From assembly GCA_963737655.1 (NCBI GenBank), contig CAVTTN010000002.1:4832001-4896000 (forward strand): a stretch of DNA of 64,000 nt, written 5' to 3'. The notes under the pieces are model-generated. The model was not told the origin of the DNA. It did not search any database and was given only the letters and a program-made list of their open reading frames with translations. The number at the start of each line of letters is the position of its first letter. Position 1 is the first letter of the stretch. Source of the DNA: an uncultured Planctomycetota bacterium (lineage in GTDB: Bacteria > Planctomycetota > Planctomycetia > Isosphaerales > Isosphaeraceae). Made by a program: the position numbers and the translations under genes. Shown here piece by piece: positions 7,263 to 16,526 of the stretch.

Positions 7263-8689
7263 GACTCGCCCCGGACCCATCTCCCGAGGAAATTGGCCAG
7301 TTCCTGGGCCTCTTCGCGGTCCCGGGCCTCGGCGATCACCCGGACGATCGGCTCGGTATTGCTCGATCGGACATGGGCCCAGCAATCCGGCCAGTCCAGC
7401 CGCAGCCCGTCGCGACGATCGGCCTTGGCGTCGGGATGGGCCTCGGCGATCCGGTCGAACAGCTCCGAGACCGACGGCCCCGAGGGGTCCAGCGGATACT
7501 TCTCCTTCACCATCGAGTAATTCGGCAATTCGTCCACGATCTTGGAAAGCGGCTGGCCGGTCTCGGTCATCAAATCCAGGACCAGGGCCATCCCCACGAA
7601 GCTGTCGCGGACCAGGCCGACCCTCGGGTCGATCACCCCGCCGTTCCCCTCGCCGCCCAAAATCGCGGAATGCTCCTCGATCCCCTGGACCACGTGGATC
7701 TCGCCGACGGGGGTTCGGTAGACCGGGCAACCGTACTCGGCGGCGACGTCGTCGATTACCCGGGAGGTCGAGAGGTTGCAGACGACCGGGCCTTTTTCCT
7801 GGGAAAGCCGCCGGCGGACGGCCAGAGCCAGGGTCAATTCCTCGCCGATGTAGCGGCCGGTCTCGTCGATGATGGCGAGGCGGTCGGCGTCGGGGTCCTG
7901 GGCGAAGCCGACGTCGGCGCGGAACCCGGGGACGAACCCGCAGAGGTCGCGGAGGTTCGATTCGGTCGGTTCGAGGGGGCGGTCATAGCGGCCGTCGGGC
8001 TCGGTGCCGATGCCGAAGACGCGGCAGCCCAGGGCTTCGAGCAGGGCCATTCCGGTCGGCCCGCCCCCTCCGTGGCATCCGTCCAGGACGACCCGAAATC
8101 CCCTGGCCCGGATCGCCTCGCCGTTGACGATCGGCTTCACGCGGCCGAGGTGAAGGGCGTCCGGTCGTGGTGTAGCGTCGGGCCGGACGATCCGGCCCAC
8201 AGCGTCCCAGGGGACCCACCGAAACGCCTTCTCCTGGAACCGTGCGAGCATCTCCCGGCCCTCGTCCGGAGTGAGGACCGACCCGGTGCCCCGGAAGAAC
8301 TTCAACCCGTTGTACTCGGCCGGGTTGTGGGACGCCGAGATCTGGATCCCGCCGAAAGTCGGAAACGAGCGGGGCCGGGGCTCGGGTGGGAGTTGGGATG
8401 AGGCCGACAGGGTGCGGTTCCACCCGGACATGGCCCGGACACGGAAGCCAACCGTCGGAGTGGCCGCGGCGCCGAGGCAGACAGCCTCACACCCGCTCGC
8501 CGAGACGGCGGAGAGGACGGCATCCATGAACAACGAGGCGGTGGGCCTCCCGTCGTGGGCGACGTAAATCGTCGAGCCGACCGGCAGGCCCGCCGCGTAG
8601 GCCGCCGCGAACTCGGCCACGACGATCGGGTCGAGCCCGTCGCCGACGATGCCCCGAAGCCCCGAGATGCTGGCGATCCGAGTCCCCAC
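7259..8689 (-). CDS. Phosphoglucosamine mutase / phosphomannomutase family
   Basis: SISGLRG, SASHNP phosphoserine loop, DPDADR, GGEGNGG, RSSNTEP; GTG start with GGAGG RBS. Confidence 0.92.
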   Translation of the reverse strand: MGTRIASISGLRGIVGDGLDPIVVAEFAAAYAAGLPVGSTIYVAHDGRPTASLFMDAVLSAVSASGCEAVCLGAAATPTVGFRVRAMSGWNRTLSASSQLPPEPRPRSFPTFGGIQISASHNPAEYNGLKFFRGTGSVLTPDEGREMLARFQEKAFRWVPWDAVGRIVRPDATPRPDALHLGRVKPIVNGEAIRARGFRVVLDGCHGGGGPTGMALLEALGCRVFGIGTEPDGRYDRPLEPTESNLRDLCGFVPGFRADVGFAQDPDADRLAIIDETGRYIGEELTLALAVRRRLSQEKGPVVCNLSTSRVIDDVAAEYGCPVYRTPVGEIHVVQGIEEHSAILGGEGNGGVIDPRVGLVRDSFVGMALVLDLMTETGQPLSKIVDELPNYSMVKEKYPLDPSGPSVSELFDRIAEAHPDAKADRRDGLRLDWPDCWAHVRSSNTEPIVRVIAEARDREEAQELANFLGRWVRGES

Positions 8690-8842
8690 GCCGACCCCTC
8701 CGCGCTGATCGTCCCGAACCCCAATCCCAAGTCCGCCCAGCCCCACAGGATAGGCGGAGCCCCCACCTCCGGGCAAGGGAACTCGGCCGGACGCATGTTG
8801 GGACCATTCATCGGGTGGAGCTCCCGAATCTGGGGTTTGTTC

Positions 8843-8952
8843 GGGTGCCCCCGGTTCTTGAACCGGGGCGGCGCAGCCGCAAGAGGCCGCTCGGGAAGTC
8901 CTGCGGTGCCTCGTGCGTCTGCGCCGCCCCGGTTCGAGAACCGGGGGCACCC
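8843..8952. repeat. Palindromic REP-like inverted doublet
   Basis: GGGTGCCCCCGGTTCTTGAACCGGGGCGGCGCAG ... CTGCGCCGCCCCGGTTCGAGAACCGGGGGCACCC. Confidence 0.8.
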
Positions 8953-8985
8953 CAGAAGTTCCAGAATCCAGAGCGATACCCCCAT

Positions 8986-9435
8986 TCATCTGCCCGGCAG
9001 GCAGGCCGCGTGCCCGAGGATCACGTTCCCTTCGACCATCGCCGAGGGCGTGGGCGACCAGCCTCGGGCGAGACGGCTCGCCAGCAATTCGTCGGCCGAG
9101 GGCCGATGGTCCCAGACGGCGACCGCCGTCACCACGCCGAATCAGGTGCAACTGTACGAAAGCCAGAGCCCGCCAGGATATGCGGCGAGGATGTCGTGGC
9201 TATATTCGTCCTGGGTCACAATTTCCGTCGGCCCGAGCGGAGGATTGTGGGCTGCCAGCCAATCGACGGCGTTCTTGATCGAGCCTTGCCAGGCCAGGGC
9301 CCGGGTCAGGAATGCGAAGCCCAGGTCGTCGAGATGGGCGCGGTTCTCGACCGGGACCGAGGGCTCGGTCCGCAGACGGGCGAGCGTCTCGGGGATCGAC
9401 GACGAGTCCGGCGATCGCGGTCCGTCTTCGTTCAT
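8986..9435 (-). CDS. Hypothetical protein, putative selenoprotein (149 aa with UGA 9144-9142 read as Sec; 97 aa if UGA is a stop)
   Basis: ...GLWLSYSCT-UGA-FGVVTAVAVWDHRPSADELLASRLARGWSPTPSAMVEGNVILGHAACLPGR; SECIS-like hairpin directly after the UGA. Confidence 0.7.
9106..9141 (-). promoter_or_regulatory. Putative bacterial SECIS hairpin
   Basis: UGA + 11 nt + GACGGC-GGUC-GCCGUC perfect 6-bp stem; lower stem GUGGU/ACCAU. Confidence 0.65.
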
Positions 9436-10211
9436 TTGTTGTGCTTCCGGGTCGTCCAGGGCAGGCCGAAGACGTGGCGCGAGGGATCATCCAGCGAGGT
9501 GGCCCGGTACGGCTCCTCCCGAGCGACGATCCCGCCCCGAATCGACGCCAGGATGCGGAGGTTTTCCCGACGCAACCTCTCGAACTCCCGGGGCGGAAGC
9601 CGTTCGGCGTCGGGGTGGAGGGTCGAGGCGGTCTGGCGATCGACGGTCTTGAAGAACGCGATGCATACATCGATCGATTCAAGCTGGAGGGCGCGCAGCC
9701 CCGTCCCCTTGTTCTTCTCCCACCATGCTTCCAGGGGCAGGTCGGATTTCGCCAGGGGGCCGATCTCGAACTGGTCGCGGGTCATCTCGTGCAGCTCGGG
9801 CTCGAACGGGAGGATGATCCGTTCGGCGATCATCCGACAGGCCCCGGAAACCGAGACGTTCCGATCGGTGCTCCCCTGATTTAGGGAGAAGGAATACCGA
9901 TCGTCGGATCGATGATGAAGAAGTAAGTCGAGGGCCGGCTCGCCTTCGGCCAGGAGTTGCTGGGCCGCGAGGTAGACCGGGACCTGGAGGGCCTTGTCGT
10001 AGGGTTTTCGGAACGTGATGGTCTCGTCCTCGCCCATCCCGGCGTCGCCCACGATGGAAGGCGGAGCGTTCCGAGAGGCCAGCATCTCGATCAGATAGGC
10101 GACGCGGGCCGGACCCTCCCGGTCGGCAGTCCGGGCCTCGCCCTCGCCGAGCGCCTCGCCGGACCCGCCGAGGCCGATCCCGAAAACGACCAGAACGAGG
10201 CCCGCGCTCAT
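9432..10211 (-). CDS. Hypothetical secreted protein
   Basis: 259 aa, N-terminal hydrophobic signal; ATGA coupling to the downstream gene. Confidence 0.7.
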   Translation of the reverse strand: MSAGLVLVVFGIGLGGSGEALGEGEARTADREGPARVAYLIEMLASRNAPPSIVGDAGMGEDETITFRKPYDKALQVPVYLAAQQLLAEGEPALDLLLHHRSDDRYSFSLNQGSTDRNVSVSGACRMIAERIILPFEPELHEMTRDQFEIGPLAKSDLPLEAWWEKNKGTGLRALQLESIDVCIAFFKTVDRQTASTLHPDAERLPPREFERLRRENLRILASIRGGIVAREEPYRATSLDDPSRHVFGLPWTTRKHNK

Positions 10212-10416
10212 CGAATGCCTCCCCTCAGGCTGGCGTCGGGACCGTCCGCGATGAGCGGATTCGGAGAGGACCGGAGCGAGCTTCGCCGGGCCGGAGATCG
10301 GAGCCTCCGGGCGAGCGGGCCGGGAAGGAAACCGGCACGGTCCTCGACGGGGATGGAGGTCGCCATGAGGGCAGTCTCCCTTCGCATCGATTCGAATCGG
10401 CCGCCCGGGGCGATTT

Positions 10417-10785
10417 CTACCCGATGGTGAACACGGGGACGAGTTCCGGCGGCGTGGACTCGACCAGGAGGAAGTAGCAGTAGGCCAGGTGAGCCGCCCA
10501 TCTCGCCTTGATCTCGGCCGGGAAGTCCAGGCTCCGCAGGTGCCTCTGGAGCAGGTCGATCTCCCTCCAGAGGTCCTCCATCATGTCCCAGCCGCCGAAG
10601 GTCACCGGGTCGCCCTCGCCGAGGAGGGTCAGTTGGGCGATCCCCACCTCGCGGAGCCGGGGCAGGCTCCAGAAACGCATGCTGGTTTCCTGGCAGCCGA
10701 GGAGGTCATAGGGGGACTCCACCTCGATTGGCGTGGAGATCCCGGTGGTCCTGTCCCAGTATTCGATGAGGATGCTTCGACTCAT
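10417..10785 (-). CDS. Hypothetical protein
   Basis: Globular-looking 122 aa ORF from MSRSILIEYW with coding bias. Confidence 0.65.
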   Translation of the reverse strand: MSRSILIEYWDRTTGISTPIEVESPYDLLGCQETSMRFWSLPRLREVGIAQLTLLGEGDPVTFGGWDMMEDLWREIDLLQRHLRSLDFPAEIKARWAAHLAYCYFLLVESTPPELVPVFTIG

Positions 10786-10867
10786 GGCGGGACCCGATGT
10801 GGCCTTCCATCGCCTCAGGTGCCGAGTGGATCGTTCGAAATCGTCGGGGGCCGACGCGGCCACACCC

Positions 10868-11329
10868 TCAGTCCGGGGAATGCCGCTGGTCGTAATCGAA
10901 GCTCAGGAGCTGGCCGATCGTTTCGATCCCGTGATCGGGATAGGACGATTCCGCGGCGACCTCGCGCCGGACCCTCGCCGGGAGCGGCAAGTCGCAATGG
11001 CGGAGGGAGTCGGGCAGCGGCCTCATCTCCTCGGCGAGGTGATCGGCCAGGAAGTCCAGCAAGTCGAAGGCGTGGAGGGCCTCCGCCTCGGGTCCGGAAC
11101 GAAGGCGTTCGAGGAGGAACGCGGCCTCGTCGGCGAACCGGTCGACGAAGTGACGGCCGAGGATCGTCTCGAAGGAGGGCAGATAGCGAGTGTAGCGGAT
11201 GGCCCGGGGAAAATCGTTCACCCGACCTCGCGGGGCCCAAAGGGGGAGGCACCGCGCCCACGCCTCCTCCACCGTCCCGACCAGGTAGGGCGCGCTGGTT
11301 GCCGCCTCCACTTCGTGCTCGGATTTCAC
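10868..11329 (-). CDS. Hypothetical protein
   Basis: GTG start preceded by GGAGGAG; helical globular sequence. Confidence 0.65.
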   Translation of the reverse strand: MKSEHEVEAATSAPYLVGTVEEAWARCLPLWAPRGRVNDFPRAIRYTRYLPSFETILGRHFVDRFADEAAFLLERLRSGPEAEALHAFDLLDFLADHLAEEMRPLPDSLRHCDLPLPARVRREVAAESSYPDHGIETIGQLLSFDYDQRHSPD

Positions 11330-11372
11330 CGCGCTCCTCCTCCGGCCACCCCCGGCCCCGCGTAACGGACGT

Positions 11373-13382
11373 TCAGGCTTCCGTCGCGCTCCCCAGCGGG
11401 TTGTCCAGCGACGCCACGACGCCATCTTCCTCGATCGGGACGGCCATCCCGGGCCTCTTGCCGATCATGTCCTCGATCTCCTTGACCGACAGCACCTCGC
11501 GCTCGATCAGGGCCTCGGTGAGCTTTTCGAGGGCCTCGCGGTGGTCCTGGAGGAGGTGGTATGCCCGCTCGTCGGCCTCGCGAAGAATCCGGGCCACTTC
11601 CTCGTCGATGAGCTGGGCGGTGTGGTCGGAGTGGTCGCGGGACTCGCCGATCTCCCGGCCGAGGAACGGGTGCTCCTCGTTGTCCCGGAAGAAGACCGGG
11701 CCGATCCGTTCGCTCATCCCGCACTGGGTGACCATCGCGCGGGCCAGCCGGGTGGCCCTCTTCAGGTCGTCCATCACGCCGGCCGAGAGGTCGTCGAACA
11801 CCAGGCGCTCGGCGGCGCGTCCGCCCAGGGCCACGGCGAGCATGGCGCGGATCTCGGTGGCGTAGTAGCTGACCTTGTCCTCGGGCGGGAGGTACTGGGT
11901 GACGCCCAGGGCCCGGCCCCGGGGGATGATCGTGACCTTGTGGACGGGGTCGGCCTCGGGGATCAGCCAGGCGACCAGGGCGTGGCCGACCTCGTGATAG
12001 GCCGTGGCGCGCTTCTCCTTCTCGGTGATGACCTCCTCGCGCTTCGCCCCCATCAAGATCTTGTCTCGGGCGACGTCGAAGTCGGTCATCTCGATGGCCG
12101 GCTTGTCCTCGCGGGTGGCGATCAGGGCGGCCTCGTTCACCAGGTTCGCCAGGTCGGCCCCGCTCATGCCGACCGTGCCCCGGGCGATCGAGTCCAGGTC
12201 CACGTCGGCCCCGAGCGGGGTCGTCCGCGTGTGGACCTTGAGGATCTCCAGCCGGCCCTTCTTCGTCGGGCGATCGACCGTCACGTGCCGGTCGAACCGG
12301 CCGGGCCGGAGCAGGGCCGGGTCGAGGACGTCGGGCCGATTCGTGGCGGCCAGGACGATCACGGTCTCGCTCGGGGTGAATCCGTCCATCTCGGTGAGGA
12401 TCTGGTTGAGCGTCTGCTCGCGCTCGTCGTGCCCCCCGCCGAGCCCGGCCCCTCGGATTCGCCCGACCGCGTCGATCTCGTCGATGAACAGGATGCAGGG
12501 GGAATTTTCCTTGGCCGTCTTGAACATGTCGCGGACCCGGCTGGCCCCGACGCCGACGAACATCTGGATGAATTCGCTGCCGGAGATCGAGAAGAACGGC
12601 ACGCCGGCCTCTCCGGCCACGGCGCGGGCGAGCAAGGTCTTGCCCGTCCCGGGAGGGCCGTTCAGCAGGACCCCCTTGGGGATGCGCCCGCCGAGCCTCT
12701 CGAACTTCTGGGGGTTCTTGAGGAACTCGACGATCTCCTGGAGCTCGCTCTTGGCGTTCTCCAGGCCGGCGACCTCGTCGAAGGTGGTCCTCTGCTTGGA
12801 CTTGTCGTGCCTCTTGGCCGGGCTCTTGACGAAGTTGCCGAGGATCCCGCCGTCGAACTGGTCGCGGGCCCGTCTCATGAAGAGGTAGATCATCCCCACG
12901 AACAGGAGGGTGGGCAGGAGGAAGGTCACCCAGAGCAGGCCGCTGGCGCCCTGGGGGGCCACGGCCTCGATCTTGACCGGCCTCCTCGTCGATTTCGGCA
13001 GCTTGTTGCTCTCCAGGACGTTGTTCACCTCGTCGACCTGATGATCCGAGGGGAACACGGTGGCGAAGAACTCGATCGGCTTGGACGGCGTGGCGCCGGG
13101 CCCGTTGTCCGGCGCCGCCTTGGCGCGAAGCCTCCCGCTGGCCTCGAGCCCCTGGTACTGGATGGACTCGATGTTGTCGGCGTCCACCTGATCGCGGAAC
13201 CAGCTATAGGTGACGACCGTCTCCCTCTTCGGCGAGTTCATGTAGATGATCAGCGCGACGACCGCGATCAGGAAGACCCACACGAACGGCGGGGCCGGGG
13301 CCGACCCCGTGCCGCTGGGCTTCCGGGCCGAGGGCGGGCGCGGGGGTTTCTCGGGCTGGGGCGGACGGCTCTCCATGGGCAT
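11373..13382 (-). CDS. ftsH: ATP-dependent zinc metalloprotease FtsH
   Basis: Two TMs, [17 protein letters not shown] ([13 protein letters not shown]), HEVGH. Confidence 0.97.
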
Positions 13383-15114: not shown

Positions 15115-15250
15115 GCCGCACGCACGTCGGGTCCCGGCCGTCGTCGCCTGGTGCCGCGAGCCCGCGTGTTAGTCTGGCCCGGACATCGCGCCGCATCCGA
15201 GACTGTCGCCCCCGCCCGGGGAGCACGCAGAACAGAGTGTTCTTCCACGC
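15115..15250 (+). ncRNA. Putative IS110 bridge RNA (target-binding and donor-binding loops); ends approximate
   Basis: Guide-like segments TCGTCGCCT (15141-15149) and GTTAG (15168-15172) match the target; GACTGT (15201-15206) and CAGAACAG (15228-15235) match the donor junction; each pair brackets a small hairpin. Confidence 0.75.
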
Positions 15251-15287
15251 GATGTCCCCCGGCGTGCGTCGGCGGGGGGGGTTCGCC

Positions 15288-16526
15288 ATGCAGGTGCTCC
15301 ATCGCTGTTGCGCGGGGTTGGACATCCACAAGGATACCGTCGTCGCCTGCGTCCGCCGCGTCGATGACACGGGCAAGGCCCGCTCGCAAGTACGGACCTT
15401 CGGGACCATGACCGGGGCCTTGATCGAGCTGGCTGATCGGCTGGCCGAGCAGGGCGTCGTCCACGTCGCGATGGAGTCGACCGGCGTGTACTGGAAGCCG
15501 GTCTGGCACCTGCTGGAGGGGCGGTTCGAGCCGATGCTGGTCAACGCCCAGCACATCAAGCAGGTGCCGGGCCGCAAGACCGACGTCAAGGATTGCCAGT
15601 GGATCGCCGAGTTGCTCCAGCACGGCCTGCTCAAGGCCAGCTTCGTGCCGCCGGAGCCGATCCGCGAGCTGCGCGACCTGACGAGGCAGCGGGCGCAGAT
15701 CGTCGCCGAGCGGGGCTCGGTCGCCAACCGCATCCAGGGGGTGCTGGAGGACGCCAACATCAAGCTCGGCTCGGTGGCCACCGACGTGCTGGGCGACTCG
15801 GGTCGCGCCATGTTGCGGGCGTTGATCGAGGGCCAGGACGACCCGGAGGCCCCGGCGGAATTGGCCAAGGGGCGGCTGCGGGCCAAGATCCCGGCGCTGC
15901 GGCTGGCGCTTCGCGGGAAGGTGACGGAGCACCACCGCTTCCTGCTGCGGCTCCTGCTGGACCACTACGAGGCGCCGGAGGCCCTGATCGGCCGACTGGG
16001 GGAGCGGATCGACCGGGTGCTGGCGCCGTACGCCGAGGCGGTGGAGCGGCTGGAGACGATCCCCGGGGTCGGCCGCCGGGTCGCCGAGATCGTCGTCGCG
16101 GAGCTGGGCGTGGAGATGGGGCAGTTCCCGACGGCTCGCCACCTGGCGAGCTGGGCCGGGATGTGCCCCGGGAACAACGAGAGCGCCGGCAAGCGCCGCA
16201 GCGGCAAGACGACCAAGGGGAGCCGCTGGCTACGGACGGCCCTGATCCAGGCGGCGCACGCGGCGGGCCGGAGCAAGGCGACGTATCTGGGGTCGCAGTA
16301 CCGTCGGCTGGCATCGCGGCGCGGGGCGAAGCGAGCGGCGGTGGCGGTGGGCCATACGCTGCCGGGGATCATCTACGAAGTCCTGGGCCGGGGGACGACC
16401 TACGAGGATCTAGGCCCCTGCTACCTGGAGCGGTTGGAGCCCGAGCGATTGACCCGGCAACCGGTCAGGCGCTTGGAACGGCTCGGCCACAAGGTTACAT
16501 TGGAACCCAACGAGGCGGCCGCGTAG
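15288..16526 (+). CDS. IS110 family transposase / bridge recombinase (DEDD RuvC-like plus Tnp20 domain)
   Basis: GLDIHK, MESTGVYW, KTDVKD, TIPGVG, ASWAGMCPGNNESAGK. Confidence 0.96.
   Translation: MQVLHRCCAGLDIHKDTVVACVRRVDDTGKARSQVRTFGTMTGALIELADRLAEQGVVHVAMESTGVYWKPVWHLLEGRFEPMLVNAQHIKQVPGRKTDVKDCQWIAELLQHGLLKASFVPPEPIRELRDLTRQRAQIVAERGSVANRIQGVLEDANIKLGSVATDVLGDSGRAMLRALIEGQDDPEAPAELAKGRLRAKIPALRLALRGKVTEHHRFLLRLLLDHYEAPEALIGRLGERIDRVLAPYAEAVERLETIPGVGRRVAEIVVAELGVEMGQFPTARHLASWAGMCPGNNESAGKRRSGKTTKGSRWLRTALIQAAHAAGRSKATYLGSQYRRLASRRGAKRAAVAVGHTLPGIIYEVLGRGTTYEDLGPCYLERLEPERLTRQPVRRLERLGHKVTLEPNEAAA

Follow-up and report, generated by a model that had tools for sequence, protein, structure and literature searches.

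A candidate selenoprotein family with a conserved in-frame UGA codon and a SECIS hairpin in soil and sludge bacteria

Introduction

Selenoproteins with a Trx fold (Prx, Grx, SelW) or of the AhpD/CMD type carry selenocysteine (Sec) in a CxxU, UxxC or TxxU motif, and rhodanese form 3, UshA-like, Sec.1 and FTR selenoproteins carry it in a CxU motif. NCBIfam additionally holds a set of orphan selenoproteins (UXX-star, KCU-star, UGSC, Tso, Sao, DG/DW/DF, GOS_B/C). In its accessible part, a published table of prokaryotic selenoproteins comprises 119 families, and most of the uncharacterised selenoproteins are described there as probably redox in function (PMC13188914). According to the available text of two further sources, BSepDB collects known families only (PMC13326102) and other planctomycete selenoproteins have been reported (PMC4807772).

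We analysed a locus in the window (the whole stretch of DNA under analysis, 64,000 nucleotides long) in which a reading frame is interrupted by a TGA codon. The original prediction had read it as a 149-aa selenoprotein, possibly of an uncharacterised Sec family, and both parts gained support: the TGA is conserved, the hairpin that follows it covaries, Cys homologues exist and the selA and selC content of host genomes is favourable, whilst no HMM matched any of 78 family members and RefSeq holds only truncated hypothetical proteins, e.g. WP_149115225.1 (75 aa) and WP_096326161.1 (68 aa). For the 78 members, the Pfam and NCBIfam 20.0 HMMs gave a best E of 0.0088, with unrelated models, and for 7 Cys homologues the NCBIfam HMMs gave no match. 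The models behind the 119-family table, as far as its accessible part goes, did not match either; this comparison covered the table except for five entries or groups with CDD/PANTHER ids only (Trx-like, CopZ, BtuF, Fe-S oxidoreductase). The family also matches none of the nine deep-Sep families given in the available text of PMC12013277. Like the NCBIfam orphan selenoproteins, it is small, split or truncated in annotation, and orphan; unlike them, it has no HMM match and lies in neither an operon nor a selenoprotein neighbourhood. A literature search, including peptide motifs and the two RefSeq accessions, found no description of the family, and the most recent surveys may bear on its novelty. 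The recoding mechanism is standard; what is new is the family, the dominance of Sec within it and a fold that is unassigned.

Results

A minus-strand reading frame interrupted by a TGA codon

The candidate selenoprotein ORF lies on the minus strand, a point absent from the original prediction. The features of the locus are the following, in window coordinates.

8986..9435, minus strand: candidate selenoprotein CDS, 149 aa (ATG at 9435, terminal TGA at 8988-8986)
9142..9144, minus strand: in-frame TGA, codon 98, predicted selenocysteine; TGA conserved in homologous loci
9115..9130, minus strand: SECIS upper stem-loop GACGGC-GGUC-GCCGUC (loop 9124-9121), with covariation and frozen synonymous sites
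9106..9135, minus strand: predicted lower stem GUGGU (9135-9131) / ACCAU (9110-9106), variable among homologues
9193..9210, minus strand: acidic motif D76-E77-Y-S-H80-D81, on a predicted hairpin neighbouring that of Sec; residues counted in UGA forms
9148..9150, minus strand: Cys96, the C of CxU; Cys at this site in 10/160 UGA forms
9001..9003, minus strand: distal Cys145 in G[HY]AAC, conserved and uncoupled from Sec
9432..10211, minus strand: 259-aa ORF located upstream, without a known family, whose stop overlaps the selenoprotein start codon

As had been noted, a 97-aa ORF starting at ATG 9435 is halted by a TGA (9144-9142) after SYSCT, and the frame stays open for 51 codons past the UGA (FGVVTAVAVWDH...GHAACLPGR) before a terminal TGA is reached. 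The downstream codons were said to be well biased, and GC3 is 0.79 before the UGA and 0.88 after it. When ATG, GTG and TTG codons located 5' of the UGA are considered, the only start candidate other than ATG 9435 is a GTG at codon 73. Co-transcription with the upstream 259-aa ORF is suggested because the stop of this ORF overlaps the start codon of the candidate gene (ATGA). The conserved domain is ~125 aa long, covering about residues 27-146, and the first ~23 residues are an extension in this copy.

The TGA codon is conserved in homologous loci

A GTDB genome scan confirmed by tblastn found 189 relatives, the best 80 of which were taken, and of 61 related genomes searched, 14 carried the gene, this one included. 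The aligned codon was TGA in all 94 of these genomic loci, which correspond to 92 distinct alignment windows as two loci are duplicated. Because one GTDB seed pattern lay in the hairpin, the test was repeated with Cys-homologue queries; a metagenome search using a Cys-homologue seed, and patterns without the hairpin-encoded TAVAV, gave 238 loci and, among the best 80, the codon was TGA in 77 and TGC in the other 3. The distribution of the gene is patchy: 8 of 351 Planctomycetota genomes are carriers (6 TGA matches, one match frameshifted at the codon and three divergent Cys copies), and 8 of 201 genomes in the phylum of Nannocystis gave matches with a single-protein query, all 8 with TGA. Conservation on both sides of the UGA, for which a tBLASTn-type check had been proposed, was thus found in the genomic, metagenomic and Nannocystis-phylum sets (94/94, 77/80 and 8/8 loci). 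TAA or TAG never replaced TGA across the genomic and metagenomic loci examined, no conserved start codon was present 3' of the UGA among the TGA rows compared, and the tail after the UGA measures 47-70 codons in 171 of 176 TGA rows; homologues ending with TAA/TAG and followed by unconserved codons, initially named as grounds for rejection, were not what these loci contained. One copy carries a frameshift exactly at the UGA position (L117/L122, G274:C127:135684-136021) and is either a pseudogene or an assembly error.

At the protein level, 883 matches at 50% clustering were obtained when 1.84 billion representatives were searched with a profile. The best 150 of these included 67 N-halves stopping exactly before the codon and 59 C-halves (126/150 are halves) and, when combined with earlier matches, 4 other partial sequences and 29 sequences spanning the UGA codon. 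The residue found at the Sec column of the 29 uninterrupted homologues is C in 13, W in 5, S in 4, R in 2, and L, G, P or V in one each, with one gap. Cys-containing homologues therefore exist, as expected from the original prediction, and Cys is the commonest substitute of Sec (13/29), whilst 16/29 have neither Cys nor Sec. In DNA, TGC or TGT occupies the UGA position in 6 loci. The family appears to be Sec-dominant, with Cys homologues in the minority, and its recognition would correct hundreds of split annotations.

Recoding would not be required if the TGA were a true stop (resulting from a nonsense mutation or separating two small genes), if it were read as Trp, or if the real gene were one of the long plus-strand frames that are also open over the locus (8815-9879 and 8555-9652). 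Databases do annotate the halves, and Trp occupies the position in five uninterrupted homologues. These readings are opposed by the constancy of a TGA that is never swapped for another stop or followed by a conserved start, by the use of TGA as terminal stop as well in 72 of 176 family genes, by the variation outside the hairpin, which gathers at third positions of the minus-strand frame, and by a structural model in which a hairpin of the protein spans the codon. They are already largely refuted and we consider them extremely improbable.

A hairpin under selection follows the UGA codon

The GACGGC-GGUC-GCCGUC hairpin announced 11 nt past the UGA is present, spanning +12 to +27 (9130-9115), and the lower stem proposed with it is predicted here as GUGGU/ACCAU. 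On its own, the hairpin is within what chance could produce (z = -1.22 for the 60-nt region). A perfect 6-bp stem with a tetraloop starting with GG is found at the exact spacing for 8 of the 150,302 TGA triplets of this genome. The hairpin is counted as real because it is conserved across homologues, and not from single-sequence statistics.

Third positions +15, +18, +21 and +24 have an entropy of 0.09-0.30 bits, compared to 0.96-1.84 bits at the other third positions where synonymous change is possible (the Trp codon being fixed in this comparison). The five inner pairs and the loop G were kept in 92/92 distinct alignment windows, whereas 2000 synonymous-codon resamplings kept them in 41 windows on average and in 57 at most; as the sequences are related, this result is not a P value. 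Of 161 distinct alignment windows, 156 preserved these pairs and the loop base. A silent compensatory change of G15-C24 to A-U was present in 6 of them and an amino-acid-changing one of C14-G25 to U-A in 5, and the loop was GGUC in 105 and AGUU in 54. Among 55 rows that differ from one another in the hairpin, both sides vary in 5 of 7 pairs and the outer pair is formed in just 29 rows; the covariation score of 0.293 was reached by none of 500 shuffles and slid partners scored 0.05-0.12. The divergent Myxococcota copies form the five pairs in 7/7 cases with other letters, one of them encoding VVAVAA instead, and weakened stems are exceptions (loci L114, L120 and L192). Judging from these sequence patterns, the hairpin is under selection at the RNA level. 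The AVA encoded by the hairpin is found in 45/50 C-halves compared to 9/29 uninterrupted homologues, and the hairpin constraint is apparently released once the UGA is lost. This is a clear case of an RNA element that freezes five codons of a protein.

The minimal element comprises 17 nt, with 6 bp and a 4-nt GGUC loop (-9.6 to -10.8 kcal/mol). We take this loop to be the same as that of E. coli fdhF. The hairpin of the candidate gene satisfies the bSECIS consensus constraints and fits the consensus model for bacterial genes with a coding-region SECIS of the E. coli fdhF type, as given in the accessible text of PMC13188914; the 11-nt spacing between the UGA and the hairpin agrees with that published in the available part of PMC11431864. 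In the proposed mechanism, the conserved hairpin would be recognised by SelB, which would place selenocysteine at the in-frame UGA; in our estimate it is very likely that Sec is inserted at this codon in the family.

Selenocysteine machinery of the carriers

A genome devoid of selA, selB or selC had been named as grounds for rejecting the original prediction. In this genome, selA and selB are intact and in tandem, and selD has a TGA at the catalytic position. For selC, the outcome was different: Rfam, ARAGORN, pattern matching and nhmmer did not detect it in this 87.7%-complete assembly, a profile built from the tRNA-Sec of five relatives had no match over the whole assembly, and relaxed ARAGORN returned noise only. 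The last profile result would suit a situation in which the selenoprotein family is real and this organism has lost tRNA-Sec, its copy yielding the 97-aa fragment only. An assembly gap is more likely than loss, because the assembly is 87.7% complete and also has no default-score ARAGORN match for tRNA-Lys(UUU), for which there are low-score candidates only. Loss is further opposed by the intact selA and selB, by four other UGA genes that keep their hairpins and by the presence of selC in 3/3 same-genus genomes, and we regard it as very unlikely. A tRNA-Met-like gene of this genome was missed by default ARAGORN and seen by pattern.

In other carriers, selA was detected in 50/50 and 26/27 genomes (76/77; this count omits two of the 80 loci that duplicated relatives) and tRNA-Sec in 35/36 and 4/4 (39/40 tested), which bears out the expectation that UGA forms reside in genomes with Sec machinery. 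Planctomycetota carriers had selA in 8/8 cases, a further set of host genomes in 7/7, and related carriers in 13/14, compared to 28/47 gene-negative relatives. This co-occurrence discriminates only moderately because selA is common across the phylum anyway (244 of 351 Planctomycetota genomes).

Three further genes of this genome are likely selenoprotein genes, judging from their in-frame TGA.

C2:3455248-3455838, plus strand: Prx/redoxin-like Sec gene, DW-U-PFC
C2:628828-629415, minus strand: AhpD-like Sec gene, CPY-U
C2:3221473-3221757, minus strand: SelW-like Sec gene, CAL-U, directly upstream of selD

Predicted loops of the SelD, Prx-like, AhpD-like and SelW-like genes are GGUC or AGUU(U), which provides an internal control for the loop type. 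The genome-wide scan for Sec genes gives a lower bound, as its coding-score filter missed SelD and the candidate gene.

Predicted structure of the read-through protein

AlphaFold2 modelling of 78 read-through sequences over residues 24-149 (126-aa model) gave one confident domain (pLDDT 96.6, pTM 0.89) with a hairpin spanning the Sec codon, a favourable outcome for the structure prediction that had been proposed as a check. The chain begins with a strand and two helices, continues with a meander of four strands and another helix, and closes with a short hairpin followed by a last helix. Sec is at position 75 of the model, in a predicted turn between strands 4 and 5 (DSSP); the domain is predicted to be of the alpha+beta type with Sec at the tip of the beta4-beta5 hairpin, beside Thr/Ser. 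The strongest couplings, weak with a Meff of 128, join the C-terminal helix to helix 3 (model D92-H119 and L99-L123). From the strand order and these weak couplings, we infer a packing of the C-terminal helix against helix 3 and a common sheet edge for the D-E-x-x-H-D and Sec turns. The model of a truncated RefSeq product on its own is poor (pTM 0.23, pLDDT 0.42, obtained by a different method from that of the read-through model), and the ESM Atlas had no usable match for a Cys homologue or for the truncated RefSeq product. No hydrophobic leader was seen in the N-termini of the family, so the selenoprotein is probably cytoplasmic.

The protein had no match in Pfam, NCBIfam, PHROGs, PADLOC or PDB sequences, and Foldseek found nothing at E <= 0.001 against the PDB and viral models. 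In a wide structural search, the best match was OsmE (4dm5_A; Z 6.0, rmsd 3.0 A, 80 residues, 10% identity), the next ones having Z of 5.4 and 4.8; as its Z is below 8, the match to OsmE may reflect only a common arrangement. The model shares with OsmE/BamE/BLIP-like alpha+beta domains the succession of helices and an antiparallel meander. In contrast, these are mostly exported lipoproteins without a catalytic chalcogen, and the match barely covers the model beyond about residue 104. The lack of a structural match does not show that the fold is new. Likewise, the claim that no Trx or AhpD fold is recognisable agrees with the lack of a sequence match and with the absence of these folds from the top structural hits, which does not exclude them. 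Thiol/selenol chemistry is probably common to the candidate and to Trx-fold and AhpD/CMD selenoproteins; the candidate family differs from them in having none of their motifs and in the modelled position of Sec, at the tip of a beta-hairpin in a meander sheet.

Conserved residues and possible roles of Sec

Among 160 distinct UGA forms, D76 and E77 are each present in 160/160, D81 in 154/160 and H80 in 153/160. The residue at -2 of Sec is Thr in 100, Ser in 22, Ala in 17 and Cys in 10. The C-T-U of the CxU motif described initially is therefore present in this copy and is not a feature of the family; by these counts, CxU is a local planctomycete variant, and the Cys at -2 of known CxU-motif selenoproteins is not conserved here. 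No recognised redox motif is conserved in the family.

We propose that a single exposed selenolate would act as a redox or electrophile-scavenging nucleophile and would be recycled by an external thiol rather than by the protein's own Cys. The chances that the protein is such a one-Sec thiol-redox or peroxide/electrophile-reducing protein appear to us to be even. Counted in favour of a redox role are the position of Sec in a model turn, the rank of Cys as commonest substitute and the tendency of H80 to track the chalcogen (16/20 Cys forms compared to 6/17 non-chalcogen forms; Fisher p = 0.008, sequences not independent). Counted against it are the lack of a redox motif, the 16/29 homologues without Cys or Sec and the lack of a redox theme among neighbours. 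An obligatory Asp-His-Sec relay or triad was downgraded, H80 being replaced in 5/7 divergent Myxococcota UGA forms.

Sec might instead cycle through an intramolecular selenenylsulfide with Cys96 or Cys145, the protein being a two-residue oxidoreductase. Cys96 is present in this copy and Cys145 in 147/158 UGA forms. However, the Cys96 site is Cys in 10/160 only, Cys145 is equally frequent in Cys forms and in other forms (10/14 each) and is missing from 3/7 divergent Myxococcota UGA forms, and the C-terminal helix, given its coupling to helix 3, would be on the other face of the sheet. We hold this cycle to be very doubtful. Both the CxU motif and a resolving role of Cys145 were downgraded on the residue counts in the UGA forms. 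Neither H80 nor C145 is obligatory, since they are replaced or absent in divergent UGA forms.

The near-invariant D76, E77 and D81, predicted on the hairpin adjoining that of Sec, would also suit a protein in which Sec is inserted and, with an Asp/Glu/His cluster, serves to bind or detoxify soft metals or metalloids (Hg, Cu, Ag, As); the accessible part of the published catalogue holds the metal-related selenoproteins SaoL, MbdU and CopZ-like (PMC13188914). The acidic residues are, however, equally kept in forms without Sec or Cys (16, 17 and 17 of 17), so that a structural role fits. Moreover, no metal-resistance neighbour recurs in the flanks and no MerB or CopZ match appeared in sequence or fold searches. 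We consider a metal-related role unlikely.

Gene neighbourhood

All-against-all clustering of flanking ORFs revealed no neighbour recurring across phyla. Pfam results for 114 of 152 selected flanking ORFs indicated unrelated housekeeping genes and lineage-specific neighbours, with one msrA and one AhpC/TSA gene as the redox genes. The msrA gene lies 29 nt downstream in one Myxococcota locus (L041:4471-5136) and, in one Blastocatellia locus, the AhpC/TSA gene (L045:3348-3980) lies upstream in divergent orientation. Among the flanks scanned, sel genes never adjoined the family gene, which speaks against a protein that carries Se or S. Sec could also be a covalent catalytic nucleophile without redox chemistry, as in a cis-trans isomerase or a transferase: in three planctomycete loci (L073, L098 and L100), the gene is directly upstream of homogentisate 1,2-dioxygenase, preceded by an FAA hydrolase gene in L073 and L098 and by a glyoxalase/HppD-like gene in L100. 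This context is presumably the expected place of maleylacetoacetate isomerase. The three loci belong to one tree clade, though, and the context was found in no other lineage; a non-redox nucleophile or carrier is, in our view, distinctly unlikely. From its surroundings, the selenoprotein gene seems to behave as a stand-alone unit. The 259-aa ORF was not found as a recurring neighbour, and the three upstream ORFs (259, 148 and 185 aa; 9432-11425, minus strand) belong to no Pfam or NCBIfam family. The N-terminus of the 259-aa ORF is hydrophobic.

Distribution and evolution of the family

The family is small and widespread, from soil and sludge bacteria, with members in Planctomycetota, Myxococcota, Gemmatimonadota, Acidobacteriota, Chloroflexota and Melainabacteria. 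It is directly testable because carriers include cultured strains (Nannocystis exedens DSM 71, Limnoglobus roseus PX52 and Polyangium). Four loci titled Alcaligenaceae or Heliobacteriaceae (L010, L017, L028 and L074) group with planctomycete and Blastocatellia clades, and their titles may be misassigned. A search of viral contigs gave one marginal match (E 7e-4), unconfirmed by the family profile.

Some Cys homologues look like recent Sec-to-Cys switches. One (L134) combines TGC with an intact hairpin and shares 83-88% identity with UGA forms; two others (L123 and L124) have TGC and have lost the loop G (AAUU and AAUC), and their closest non-Cys relatives have TGA. From the genetic code, the W, S, R, G and L substitutes would mostly be one base away from TGA. 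In a quick unrooted tree of 119 rows, UGA clades are interspersed with Cys and other forms, which favours repeated loss of Sec; Cys requires 11 changes, only 2 of them forced by starred branches, and as 56 of 116 forks are open, the tree cannot fix the root. A distant Cys clade, 27-35% identical to UGA forms, could be ancestral. This Cys-only clade (L118, L119 and L121, in G192 and G336) shows T-C-x-G where UGA forms have Sec, and a C-x-x-GGH motif at the C-terminus, with two copies in G192; the genomic Cys copies sit in selA-positive genomes (G192 and G336). In the accessible text of PMC13188914, Sec-to-Cys change is described as rare in bacteria, and the family provides natural examples of apparent change of this kind accompanied by SECIS decay.

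That Sec is ancestral and dominant in the family, repeatedly lost, and carried on a fold unused by known selenoproteins or thiol enzymes is a tentative proposal, to which we give somewhat less than an even chance. If this is true, largely aerobic soil bacteria would harbour a Sec-dependent chemistry that is new, and screens based on Cys/Sec pairs would miss a class of Sec-first families. The family would extend a 119-family catalogue that, in its accessible part, is dominated by thioredoxin folds and anaerobes (PMC13188914).

Two further features were observed elsewhere in the window. A 110-bp palindrome with 54-nt arms that are 87% complementary lies at 8843-8952, between the candidate gene and a phosphomannomutase gene. 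It belongs to a dispersed REP/MITE-like repeat that has 86 matches when both strands are counted and ~20 near-full-length places. The ORF at 15237-16526 (plus strand) looks, from its motifs, like an IS110-family transposase.
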